Of a stretch of 64,000 nucleotides of DNA, positions 8,820 to 50,580 are shown in pieces. The stretch spans positions 32,001 to 96,000 of the forward strand of contig CAWBKB010000008.1 in the NCBI GenBank assembly GCA_963789265.1, read 5' to 3'. Positions within the stretch are counted from its first letter, which is position 1. Every line of letters begins with the position of its first letter. A program made the position numbers and the translations under genes. This DNA comes from an uncultured delta proteobacterium. Its GTDB lineage: Bacteria > Desulfobacterota > Desulfomonilia > Desulfomonilales > Desulfomonilaceae. The notes below the pieces were generated by a model. It ran no database searches, was not told where the DNA came from, and was given only the letters and a program-made list of their open reading frames with translations.

Positions 8820-8937
8820 CTGAATCATTGCTCATGGGTCACCCGGCAATGAATTGCCGGGCTATTATCTCGCCGCCCCTCTGGGGCTCATAAGGTTGCA
8901 CGGGTTGCCCTATTTTAACGCATATGCGGGAATCAAT

Positions 8938-39529: not shown

Positions 39530-39668
39530 GTTTTTTTTCTCCGCGTGAGGCAATCGTTCGCTGACGGCAACCATTCACTTTCGCGCGGGAAGAGATTGTC
39601 ATTGCGTGTCCCGCGTCTCGCTGGACGAAGCAATCTTTACCTCATACCGATTTGCTTTCAAACAAGTG

Positions 39669-39798
39669 ATACCAATGCGCTTTCATACATGTAAGACGAC
39701 GGGCACGGAGGCCCGTGCTACCCCACGTCCCGCGGGGTAGGGCCGGCGTCCCTGCCGGCCAAGACGTTCTTAATCATTCTTTTGAACGCGACATGGTG
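39669..39798. repeat. ATACC-ended MITE-like element whose right IR is interrupted by the intron
   Basis: Left ataccaatgcgctttca versus right tgaacgcgacatggtg|t (12/17 inverted match); internal REP hairpins; related ends near 39644 and 50004-50020. Confidence 0.6.
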
Positions 39799-41720
39799 GT
39801 GCGCCAGGCAAAGCTTGGCGTCTCTTACTGGGTGAGAGTCCCTGTCGGGTAAGGTCTAACCAGCCACCCGTATCGAGTGTTGCGGATATTTGGGAGGATG
39901 CAATTTAGAGCAAACGAACGAAATATCCGAAGCGTACACAGAGAATCTTGTGGGCGGCAAGGGAGGCCGCATCTCCCTGAAGCGATTCAGCCTCGTTACC
40001 GCTGAGCAGTCGGCGACGATGTTACCATATCGGAAGCCAGCATAGAGGGATCGTTATCGGTGAGATCCCCGAGGGGCTGCCGGGGTCAGAGAGCGTGGCA
40101 CGCAGGAAGAGAGATATTAGGAACCTGGGAGGCCCCCCGGTCTCCCTCGCAAGAGGGTAGGGTGTACCAACCAAAAGGAGGCCACCCGATGGGCCGAAGG
40201 GAGTCAGATCGCTCCATCGTACTCTGAGGCGGGAGAGCCGGCCACAAGGGGAAGGGAGCGACGAGGCCGCGTAGCCTGCAAAGGAAACACGAACCGAACA
40301 AGGAGGATCGGACCAAGCCGTGCAAACCTCACTGCGGGGAATAGCAAACAAGGCAGCCAAGCAACAGAAGCATCGATTCGGCAACCTCTACGAGTTGCTC
40401 AACGAGGAGAATCTACGATGGTGCTGGCAGTTTCTTCGGAAAGAGGCGGCACCGGGAATAGACAGAGTGGATTATGCCGAGTACCAGGCTGAGCTGGCCT
40501 CCAGTATCCATGACCTCGTTGGCCGCCTGAAGGGGAAGCGGTATCGAGCCAGATTGGTTCGTAGGCATTACATTCCCAAACTCAATGGGAAGCTTCGTCC
40601 GTTAGGGATACCGACTACTGAGGATAAGCTGCTGCAGCTTGCGGTAGCCAAGATCCTGGAGGCCATTTACGAGCAGGACTTTCTCGATTGCAGTTATGGG
40701 TATCGTCCGGGTCGCAGCCCGCTCGATGCGGTAAAGCACCTCACGGATGAGCTGCAATATGGGAGGTACTGTTGGATCGTGGAAGCGGACATCAAGGGGT
40801 TCTTCGACAACATCGACCATGATTGGATGATTCGGATGCTGGGAGAGCGAATTGATGACAAGTCGTTTCTGCGTCTGATTCAAAAATGGCTCAAGGCAGG
40901 TATCTTAGATACGGACGGAGAGGTGATCCATCCGGCCACGGGCACACCTCAAGGTGGGATCGTGTCGCCGATCTTGGCCAACCTCTACCTGCATTATGCT
41001 CTGGACCTATGGTTTGAGACAAAGATCAAACCGGCCTGTCAGGGCAGCGCTTTGCTCATCCGCTTTGCGGATGATTTTGTCTGTGCGTTTCAGGATCGGA
41101 AGGATGCCGAGCTGTTCATGGAAGAGCTCGAGGCACGCCTGGGCAAATTCGGCCTGGAAACCGCTCCGGACAAGACGCGGCTGTTGCGGTTTTGTCGGTA
41201 TGATTTAGCTGGGAGCGGCCGGTTCGATTTTCTTGGGTTTGAGTTTCGCTGGGAAGAAGGCCGCAACGGGGGCCGCTTTGTGAAGCGCCGCACTTCGCGT
41301 AAGAAGCTGCGGGCCTCGCTAGCCAACTTTACGGACTGGATCAAGAAGGAGTGCCACCGGAGGACCGGTCGACTTTTCTCCACCCTCAACTCCAAGTATC
41401 GCGGATACTGGAACTACTACGGGGTGTTGGGGAATTCGGCAAGCCTTCAGCGCTTCTTTTACATCACCCAGCGGCTTCTCTTCAAATGGCTGAATCGTCG
41501 CAGTCAGCGCCGTAGTTACACCTGGGTCGGATTCAACGCCCTGGTTAACTACTATGGGGTAGAGCAGCCACGCATCACCGAACGTGCCAGACCAGTGCAA
41601 TTGGCCCTTCTGTGATCGCTGTCAGTGCGGAAGCGAGCGGCCTTGAGGAGCCCGGTGCGGGAATAGCGCACGCCGGGATCTGTGAGGGGGCCGGCGGGCA
41701 ACCGGCGGTCCTACCTTGAT
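39799..41720 (+). mobile_element. Group II intron, apparently complete
   Basis: 5' GTGCG at 39799; domain V gagcccggtgcgggaatagcgcacgccgggatc; domain VI ending ctaccttgat at 41720; RT/maturase ORF inside. Confidence 0.92.
40320..41615 (+). CDS. ltrA: Group II intron reverse transcriptase/maturase without endonuclease domain
   Basis: APGID, LRPLGIP, SYGYRPGRS, ADIKGFFDNI, GTPQGG, RFADD, FDFLGF, domain X RGYWNYY; no HNH tail. Confidence 0.95.
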   Translation: MQTSLRGIANKAAKQQKHRFGNLYELLNEENLRWCWQFLRKEAAPGIDRVDYAEYQAELASSIHDLVGRLKGKRYRARLVRRHYIPKLNGKLRPLGIPTTEDKLLQLAVAKILEAIYEQDFLDCSYGYRPGRSPLDAVKHLTDELQYGRYCWIVEADIKGFFDNIDHDWMIRMLGERIDDKSFLRLIQKWLKAGILDTDGEVIHPATGTPQGGIVSPILANLYLHYALDLWFETKIKPACQGSALLIRFADDFVCAFQDRKDAELFMEELEARLGKFGLETAPDKTRLLRFCRYDLAGSGRFDFLGFEFRWEEGRNGGRFVKRRTSRKKLRASLANFTDWIKKECHRRTGRLFSTLNSKYRGYWNYYGVLGNSASLQRFFYITQRLLFKWLNRRSQRRSYTWVGFNALVNYYGVEQPRITERARPVQLALL

Positions 41721-41781
41721 TAAAAAGTAGTGACCGATATCGCAAATGACTCGGTGAGGACGGAAGTCTTGCCGGGATCAG

Positions 41782-42043
41782 GGTAGGGTGGCCCGTGGCC
41801 GCCGTCCCGCGCGTCGGGCATTCGCGTTAAGTTAAGGCAATTTCGTTCCTTTTCGGGAGGTCCGTGCAGGCCGAGCACGATCAAAGTCCCCCTTTTATAA
41901 AGGGGGATTTAGGGGGATTTTCAAGTAGTTATCCCAAAATCCCCCCTGGCCCCCCTTTACGAAAGGGGGGAACCCCCGCGTCTCGCCGGGTTAAGTTAAC
42001 GCCGTCCCGCGCGTCGGGGGATCGGGCATTGCCCGATCTACCC
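41782..42043. repeat. Nested palindromic repeats
   Basis: gccgtcccgcgcgtcggg at 41801 and 42001 flanks a gcgttaagttaa...ttaagttaacgc element containing the aaagtccccc...aagggggattt hairpin. Confidence 0.7.
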
Positions 42044-49800: not shown

Positions 49801-50580
49801 GCTATCAACTTGTCAACAGGTCGGGATCGGCAGCGTAACCATTCACTTACTAGCGGGAAGAGATTGTCATTGCGAGCCAAGCGAAGCAATCTTTTCCTTT
49901 AAACGCCGCTTAGATTGCCGGTGGGACGGGCATCTTGCCCGTCATCCCCAATGGCAGGCAGGATGCCTGCCCCACCATATCCTCGCGGGGATTGTCACTT
50001 GTTTGATGGCGCACTGGTATAACCTGTCAACAGGTCGGGATCGGCGGCAAAGATTCTGATTGACTGACCACATTGCCGTGAGTTACTCTCAACAAAAGCA
50101 CAAATTGGGCTCTTTCAGCAACGTGAAGATGGTTTTGATTTTCCCGGCTCTCCCCGCATAGGCAGTAACTTAGCCTCGTCGGACGCCGGATTCCCCTCTT
50201 TCGTGAGGGGGGGGAAGGGGGAGGATGACAACCGACCGAAATTGTAGACGACCCTTTGTTATTTTTACGCGTGTGGGGCAAGTGGGAATTTTGAGCTAAC
50301 CCGTTGAAAATCCCCTTAAATCCCCCTTTAAAAAGGGGAACTTTGATGGGCCTTGGCCCGTTGGACCTCTCAAGAAGTAACGAAATGCCCTTAGTACTAG
50401 ATTTCCCAAATACGGTGACGTTAAGCCGGTACGGAAGAAGATTGCTTTCCCGCGAGGCGCGGGACTCGCAATGACAGATAGTGGGAATGTCATTGCGAGG
50501 AGTGAAACGACGAAGCAATCTCCACCGTGAAAATGCGTGACCGGATTTATGAAACAGAGCAATTAGTTAGCGCCTATGGG
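49801..50580. repeat. Dense cluster of nested palindromic repeats
   Basis: Direct repeat tgtcaacaggtcgggatcggc near 49811 and 50025; gtcattgcgag, gacgggcatcttgcccgtc, tcccccttt..aagggg and ATACC-type ends. Confidence 0.7.

Follow-up and report, generated by a model that had tools for sequence, protein, structure and literature searches.

RmInt1, a class D group II intron, inserts inside the body of ISRm2011-2, an insertion sequence (IS) of the IS630 type, and both of its exons are IS sequence. Here we describe a group II intron that very probably uses mobile DNA differently. It lies in a stretch of 64,000 nucleotides (nt), hereafter the window, from an uncultured delta proteobacterium of the Desulfomonilaceae (contig CAWBKB010000008.1, positions 32,001 to 96,000 of the forward strand). 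The intron is endonuclease-less and IIB-like, it is in all likelihood mobile, and the homing site of its lineage appears to be the outer terminus of a miniature inverted-repeat transposable element (MITE). Group II introns of bacteria are described as having three types of target, namely homing sites, terminators, and attC, and many copies lie among other mobile DNAs (PMC4424553); a 2025 paper gives the same three types and a start/stop-codon family (PMC12584367). RmInt1 homes into ISRm2011-2 in Sinorhizobium meliloti (PMC1802570, PMC8914252), and the window intron resembles it in being endonuclease-less, in having its homing site in a multicopy mobile element, in being targeted by pairing between exon-binding sites (EBS) and intron-binding sites (IBS), and, presumably, in retrohoming. 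As far as the two systems can be compared by description, the window intron differs in that its site is the last base of a noncoding MITE, with unrelated flank as the 3' exon, and in that both terminal inverted repeat (TIR) ends of the MITE are used in its lineage, by variants whose EBS1 has diverged.

Group IIC introns, among them the IIC-attC type, are likewise endonuclease-less and exploit an abundant, gene-free inverted-repeat motif, with nearly all of the recognition on the 5' side and at base +1 (PMC4424553, PMC7923331, PMC12584367). They read a DNA hairpin, with an IBS1 of 3 to 4 bp and no EBS2, whereas the window intron has a 6-bp EBS1, a candidate EBS2 loop, an EBS3, a match to RF02005, and an IBS1 in a repeat arm. 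The marks of group IIC (a short IBS1, no EBS2, and a position downstream of a hairpin) were not found in the window intron, and hairpin recognition in the IIC style was set aside; IBS1 and IBS2 lie in the repeat arm, and folding would hide them. In size and in its endonuclease-less reverse transcriptase (RT), the intron resembles the class F introns Ni.ha.I1 (g3) and Sr.me.I2 (g1), which measure 1.9 to 2.2 kb and encode RT-X proteins without an endonuclease domain (PMC3552965). The amino acid identity of the window RT is 34% to Ni.ha.I1 and 31% to Sr.me.I2, and the RNA of Ni.ha.I1 matches RF02003, not RF02005. We rejected membership of class F g3 or g1 on these identities, in a comparison that covered these two reference introns. 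The best plasmid-borne RTs share just 45% identity with the window RT.

In Thermosynechococcus and Trichodesmium, copies lacking an open reading frame (ORF) occur beside an ORF-bearing relative able to supply the protein in trans (PMC12584367, PMC2882425), a likeness to the sister genome described below. Those introns lie in genes or at diverse sites, whereas the ORF-less mini-introns of the sister genome lie mostly at MITE or TIR-like ends. The nearest published item that we found concerns Pseudomonas putida, in which two of nine introns are associated with repetitive extragenic palindromic sequences (PMC1525189). We found no report of MITE-end homing by group II introns in the literature covered, subscription journals lying outside it. 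The mechanism would be ordinary retrohoming; what is new is the MITE-end niche, the use of both ends through EBS1 variants, and the swarm of mini-introns.

The window intron is complete, with the following parts.

39799 to 41720, plus strand: group II intron (RF02005, RF00029, alignment of relatives)
39835 to 40095, plus strand: domain I core (RF02005, 124.1 bits)
40320 to 41615, plus strand: RT/maturase of 431 amino acids with FADD motif, without endonuclease domain (PF00078, TIGR04416)
41648 to 41680, plus strand: domain V with AGC triad (RF00029 alignment)
41713, plus strand: candidate branch-point A of domain VI, 7 nt before the 3' end (RF00029 alignment, sequence reading)

The intron is 1922 nt long, begins GUGCG, and ends ..CCUUGAU. 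The introns of relatives were taken from relatives of the window's genome and from a wider contig search, of which the best 80 of 470 RT relatives were kept, and their ends were set by profile searches. Ten full-length relatives from four genomes align end to end (1 to 1922), and the flanks diverge exactly at both intron boundaries. The preliminary description of this DNA had let the intron run to 41721, one base too far; the 3' exon begins with 41721. Domain I scores well above the gathering score of 49 for RF02005 (group-II-D1D4-6), and domains V and VI (41646 to 41720) match RF00029 (D5/D6) at 33.6 bits, under the gathering score of 40. The GUGCG start, domain I, D5/D6, and the ..GAU end are together the ribozyme features of a mobile group II intron.

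The RT/maturase is encoded within domain IV. It matches PF00078 (2e-37) and passes the cut-off of 300 for TIGR04416, the group II RT/maturase model, with 355.9 bits; its match to PF08388 is 19.4, under the cut-off of 23. Its nearest relatives of solved structure are group II intron proteins. The Pfam hits of the 431-residue protein include no HNH or other endonuclease family. Contigs of run X1 span both intron junctions. The joint from 39798 to 41721, which would mark an empty site or ligated exons, was absent from the contigs of runs X1, X2, X3, and X5. The joints 39621/39668 to 41824 and 39703 to 39750 were considered as empty sites and rejected, as they link repeats or MITE length variants.

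The 5' junction of the intron falls at the end of a 129-nt MITE without an ORF, whose surroundings are as follows.

39645 to 39666, plus strand: solitary left-end TIR fragment (TACCGATTTGCTTTCAAACAAG), followed by TGA and the MITE (>100 BLAST hits to query positions 2 to 34)
39667 to 39669, no strand: TGA, left flank of the MITE at the TNA-type duplication position (34 of 56 superfamily copies have identical flanks)
39670 to 39798, plus strand: MITE copy, 129 nt; its last 16 bases are the 5' exon recognized by the intron (7-copy alignment)
39670 to 39686, plus strand: left TIR, TACCAATGCGCTTTCAT (family alignment)
39783 to 39798, plus strand: right TIR, TGAACGCGACATGGTG; family consensus, TGAACGCGAAATGGTA (family alignment)
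41721 to 41723, no strand: TAA; T41721 is IBS3 and opens the flank (TNA position), which the intron has cut off from the MITE

Seven further copies from the genome to which the window belongs (G000; 6,061,876 nt) align with the element over ∼130 nt, giving a subfamily of eight. The consensus ends of the subfamily, ATACCAATGCGCTTTCA and TGAACGCGAAATGGTAT, agree at 14 of 17 positions in our own reading of the family alignment. In the window copy the left and right ends match at just 11 of 17 positions, ungapped, and no inverted partner of its MITE end was found at ≤5 mismatches in 17 nt. The status of this copy as a MITE rests on the family alignment. When the reverse complement of the solitary fragment at 39645 was used as a fuzzy 26-nt pattern, it returned 201 ends in G000 at ≤6 mismatches. 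These define a superfamily with 56 paired copies, mostly of 160 to 280 nt; in 34 of the 56 the 3-nt flanks are identical, nearly all being TNA. The superfamily element is TACC...GGTA with a TNA target-site duplication. The family is short, noncoding, and multicopy, with TIRs and a target-site duplication, as is characteristic of MITEs.

The intron had been described as lying inside the TIR of a MITE. The MITE is confirmed by the family alignment; the intron is not inside the TIR but between its last base and the flank. The layout is flank (TA/TNA), left TIR, right TIR, intron, and then TA/TNA. Since the intron splits the target-site duplication of the MITE, the MITE arrived before the intron. 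A transposase that cut at the TIRs would not take the intron along, because the intron sits beyond both of them.

Several repeat families are packed into the spacer around the intron, as BLAST searches of the flanks against the 6.06-Mb genome showed. A ∼74-nt element (ACCATTCACTT..GAAGCAATC; window 39569 to 39642), present in >20 copies, flanks the locus. At 41800 to 42040 lies a ∼200-nt repeat with CCCCCTTT..AAAGGGGG hairpins (>40 copies at 80 to 95% identity), which has very high read depth in all four runs.

The intron reads this site by pairings with EBS1, EBS3, and a candidate EBS2, of which the elements are listed here.

39788 to 39790, plus strand: candidate IBS2 (GCG), weak; 3 bp here, 4 bp (AGCG) in the superfamily consensus
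39793 to 39798, plus strand: IBS1, AUGGUG (pairing with EBS1)
40000 to 40003, plus strand: candidate EBS2 (CGCU), internal loop (Rfam structure)
40017 to 40032, plus strand: EBS1 hairpin, stem CGAU/AUCG, loop GUUACCAU (Rfam structure)
40023 to 40028, plus strand: EBS1, UACCAU (covariation, 33 of 51 at 6/6)
40088, plus strand: EBS3 (A) (covaries with 3'-exon +1)

In the Rfam consensus structure, the EBS1 hairpin falls at 40017 to 40032. EBS1 pairs with the 5' exon at all six positions (five Watson-Crick pairs and G39798-U40023), as had been proposed from the exposed TACCAT loop, and it fits the consensus end of the subfamily, AUGGUA, perfectly. That this target is close to the repeat end at 50004 to 50020 needs a qualification: read by eye, that end is CTGGTA/T (the slash marks the insertion point here and below), which gives five of six pairs. 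Folding domain I had been suggested as a check on EBS1; the consensus structure places EBS1 in the named loop, and the loop covaries with the 5' exon. Among 87 introns with a defined 5' end we found 51 distinct EBS1-IBS1 combinations, 33 of which pair at 6/6 and 49 at ≥5/6. In mismatched controls, in which exons were set against the hairpins of other introns (n = 2474), the corresponding values were 8.2% and 36%. One hairpin, that of L074, was mis-picked by the search pattern and scored 4. The stem of the EBS1 hairpin shows compensatory changes among the relatives.

EBS3 is A40088, the base directly after GGGGUC, and pairs with T41721. Its covariation with 3'-exon position +1 covers all four base classes (T-A in 16 of 18, A-U in 6 of 7, G-C in 8 of 14, and C-G in 5 of 5); the six non-C cases at +1 G include one without the motif and L066, whose 3' side is another intron copy. 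As a separate domain I base covarying in this way, EBS3 is of the IIB kind. An internal loop on the 5' side of the EBS1 hairpin holds the candidate EBS2. Helices of ≥5 bp were found in 33 of 68 lineage combinations, versus 26% of controls, and the longest EBS2-IBS2 helices measured 8 bp (one Terriglobia copy) and 9 bp (L100).

The insertion sites of relatives point to the same habit. Among the best 80 of 470 RT relatives, the closest, L066 (85% amino acid identity), abuts the same type of TIR, ..CTTGAAAGCGCATTGGTA/ (..TTGAAAGCGCATTGGTA/), and its EBS1, UACCAA, matches its exon, UUGGUA. At L066:2559-2780, on a contig of 2780 nt, the 3' end of the intron runs straight into another 5' end (..ACCTCGAT/GTGCGCC); this reflects a tandem copy or else an assembly wrap-around. 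The copy in genome G029 adjoins ..TTTTGGCAACTGCTA/TA, also a MITE end. In the sister genome of the same genus (G004), all seven RT-bearing copies with a readable 5' junction abut MITE ends (..CTTTTGGCAATGGGTA/; in one, ..TTGGTA/), and their 3' exons begin with TA and then diverge. TA likewise opens the 3' exon, ahead of divergent sequence, in all 10 full-length copies of G000, G004, G005, and G029. The preliminary description had named other copies at unrelated sites as grounds for doubt; L066, G029, and the seven G004 copies are at MITE ends, and L006 is not. In wastewater runs X3 and X5 we observed a close relative of the window intron, with 52 differences in 1431 compared bases, whose 5' flank differs from that of the window. 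Its EBS1 is UACUAA instead of UACCAU (differing at 40026 and 40028), and by this sequence its predicted target is another variant of the MITE end.

G004 gave the richest record. The 150 nt upstream of one of its intron copies recurs at least 41 times in that genome, and 40 fetched loci, chosen by MITE similarity, held 50 ends with the 16-nt TIR motif, 15 occupied and 35 empty; 32 of the 35 empty ends are followed by TA. Because this first sample had been chosen by MITE similarity, a second search of G004 took only intron DNA as its query, which is unbiased towards MITEs, and recovered 23 intron 5' ends. Sixteen of these abut one MITE family of 150 to 194 nt, including L150, L151, and L154, whose MITE end is of that family but whose locus is cut short by a truncation or by the edge of the contig; four (L144, L146, L152, and L153) are at related TIR-like ends, and three are at no MITE. 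An inverted TIR partner lies 150 to 194 nt upstream in 13 of the 23, with TA before it. Occupied MITEs come in several lengths (150, 173, 176, and 193 to 194 nt). These are repeated, independent insertions. Just upstream of the truncated MITE end that bears the mini-intron of L154, ∼120 to 190 nt upstream of 5008 on contig C1, we observed the D5-D6 end of a different type of group II intron (..GAGCCGTATGCGGGAGATCCGCACGTACGGTTC..CCTACCCCTAT).

The G004 copies fall into EBS1 variants that track the ends they occupy. Copies of variant A, with UACCUA as EBS1, occupy UGGGUA ends, one of them a left end that happens to have this sequence. UAGCAA is the EBS1 of variants B and D, which occupy UGGCUA, UUGCUA, or AUGCUA ends, and UAGUGG is that of variant C, at a CGGCUA end. 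Both MITE ends are used, by variants with a compensating C/G swap opposite exon position -3. Thirteen of the copies (L140 to L146, L149, L150, and L152 to L155) are ORF-less mini-introns, which retain domains I to VI but have lost the ORF, with the same deletion junction in each. Eleven of the 13 have a readable 3' end and measure 650 to 653 nt. Variant B accounts for nine, D for three, and C for one (C is also ORF-less, its 3' end not located), and they coexist with at least eight ORF-bearing copies. Nine to 10 of the 13 abut a MITE end or a TIR-like end, and three lie at sites that have ∼14 bases in common with the TIR. Position +1 of the 3' exon is T in all 11 cases, and TA follows the intron in eight of the 11. 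One B mini-intron matches RF02005 at 131.4 bits, and the B copies have a median identity of 99.7%, yet several of their 5' exons are mutually unrelated. Soil run X2 contained an equivalent deletion joint (40346 to 41626, with six identical letters); this is weak, the shorter side being 26 letters.

Other parts of the wider lineage were found at other sites. A Desulfomonilaceae metagenome-assembled genome (MAG) holds nine copies (L060 to L067 and L097; 71% amino acid identity) with EBS1 UGGUGG, eight of them at ..GAATGAACCACCA/AGACACCAAG-like sites and L061 after ..AATACACCTTCA; judged by its sequence, the site resembles a ribosome-binding site with the beginning of a repeated gene rather than the end of a MITE. 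More distant relatives (56 to 59% amino acid identity) insert after ..CGTTA/, namely L118 to L125 of a Terriglobia MAG and L101 to L107 with L131, which are Peptococcaceae, Desulfitobacteriia, and Dehalobacter records. Around these, ∼25 nt of 5' exon is kept between copies (e.g., GCCGCAGGTGAGCCACAATCCGTTA) and the 3' exons are unrelated; the site may be the end of another repeat family.

We propose the following course for the homing of this lineage. The excised intron RNA would recognize the last ∼13 bases of the TIR, EBS1 pairing with the last 6 and EBS2 further upstream. EBS3 would pair with the single T that always follows the MITE, because the target-site duplication starts with T (TNA in G000, TA in G004), and the RNA would then reverse-splice exactly between TIR and duplication. 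As is established for RmInt1, this would take place at replication forks, where the DNA is transiently single-stranded and nascent strands would serve as primers. Because the MITE and its duplication supply everything that the intron reads, every MITE copy, at either end, would be a potential neutral site. The window copy itself may still be active.

It is important to note that a number of observations weigh against MITE-end homing or against its extent. The splicing and mobility of the lineage are deduced from sequence. G000 contains one full copy and one 5'-truncated remnant only; just 7 of the 201 superfamily ends pair 6/6 with UACCAU (38 pair 5/6), and matching ends stand unoccupied. In the window copy, the MITE flanks are not identical (TGA on the left, TAA after the intron), exon position -1 is a G-U pair, and EBS2-IBS2 comes to 3 bp (CGC/GCG), which is not above chance. 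L006 of G005, the same genus, sits at ..GACGATTTTGTG/, which is not TIR-like. Three of the G004 copies (L141, L143, and L145) are at no MITE and have only ∼14 bases in common with the TIR, and relatives at ∼71 to 73% amino acid identity (L060 to L067 and L097 at ..GAATGAACCACCA/A; L069) use other targets. The remnant in G000 (C6:8965-9027; L002:1501-1563) belongs to a related intron, consists of part of D5 plus D6, is 84% identical, and ends ..CCTACCTTGAT/TGAC; its neighbor is a copy of the ∼200-nt element that also lies at window 41800 to 42040.

Part of this is what one would see if the lineage homes to MITE ends and the window copy is now immobile, the ends in G000 having drifted away from its EBS1 and EBS2. 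We regard this as the lesser possibility, one that deserves a hearing. The single copy and remnant and the 7 of 201 matching ends would fit it, as would the 3-bp IBS2, an EBS2 loop 3 to 4 nt shorter than in the G004 relatives, and an RF00029 score of 33.6 under the gathering score, compared with 47.9 for the relative L060. Against it, the ORF is open with its RT motifs and FADD, and D5, D6, and the boundaries are intact. Moreover, the motif GCG..ATGGT[AG]T occurs 29 times in G000, and several of these sites are unoccupied MITE ends (..GAAAGCGAAATGGTA/T) that could serve as targets. The earlier idea of an abundant MITE end as a multicopy safe harbor is supported for the lineage, which uses such ends in L066, G029, and G004, and fails for abundance in G000.

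That the intron is an ordinary intergenic insertion that happens to touch a MITE end, with no preference in its lineage, is very improbable. A spacer so packed with repeats and the single full copy in G000 would allow it, and the strict motif is not enriched there (29 occurrences against ∼24 expected). The junction, however, is base-exact at a TIR end, for which the chance is ∼1.7e-5 per position (201 ends over 2 x 6,061,876 strand positions), EBS1 fits the family consensus end perfectly, and L066, G029, and 16 to 20 of the 23 G004 copies are at homologous ends. It is this recurrence, together with the covariation, that tells against coincidence.

More improbable still is that a transposase moves the intron together with the MITE, as a composite DNA transposon, in place of retrohoming. 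Six of the seven G004 copies have ≥60 nt of conserved 5' exon, against 2 to 3 conserved bases in the 3' exon, and a composite would look alike. Yet the intron lies outside the TIR pair, either MITE end may be occupied, with a matching EBS1, the occupied MITEs are of differing length variants, and empty family ends are common. Further, the B copies are nearly identical, but several have 5' exons without detectable similarity. We give almost no credence to the reverse order, in which MITEs insert beside existing introns through a transposase favoring the intron 5' edge: it would likewise put TIR ends against GUGCG and has nothing specific for it, whereas insertion of a MITE at TA would leave TA between TIR and intron (TA/TNA is instead found after the intron 3' end), EBS1 would have no reason to pair or covary with the TIR, and empty MITE ends are far more numerous than occupied ones (35 versus 15 in the sample).

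Beyond homing to MITE ends, a broader picture can be put forward tentatively, at somewhat less than even chances: a layered parasitism, in which the intron and its ORF-less mini-derivatives would specialize on the termini of transposase-dependent MITEs, with EBS1/EBS2 variants tracking the TIR variants of each end and each subfamily. Since nothing is read beyond the TIR and the base that opens the duplication, the intron could follow the MITE to any new location. It may also affect excision of the MITE, whose TIR it parts from the flank. The Terriglobia MAG has eight copies with ∼25 nt of common 5' exon ending ..CCGUUA/ and unrelated 3' exons, and homing to the 3' edges of repeats may be common to the wider RF02005 lineage. 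Elsewhere in the window, at 8842 to 8888, we observed a match to the Acido-Lenti-1 small RNA (RF01687, 40.2 bits; gathering score, 37).

If this reading is true, the junction between TIR and target-site duplication of MITEs is a further target niche for bacterial group II introns. Such a site would be neutral, multicopy, and self-renewing, and defined wholly by another mobile element. The lineage would also show, inside single genomes, how new sites are opened by EBS changes. With 650-nt ORF-less ribozymes, a small RT, and a defined 14-nt target, the system would be tractable for mobility assays.

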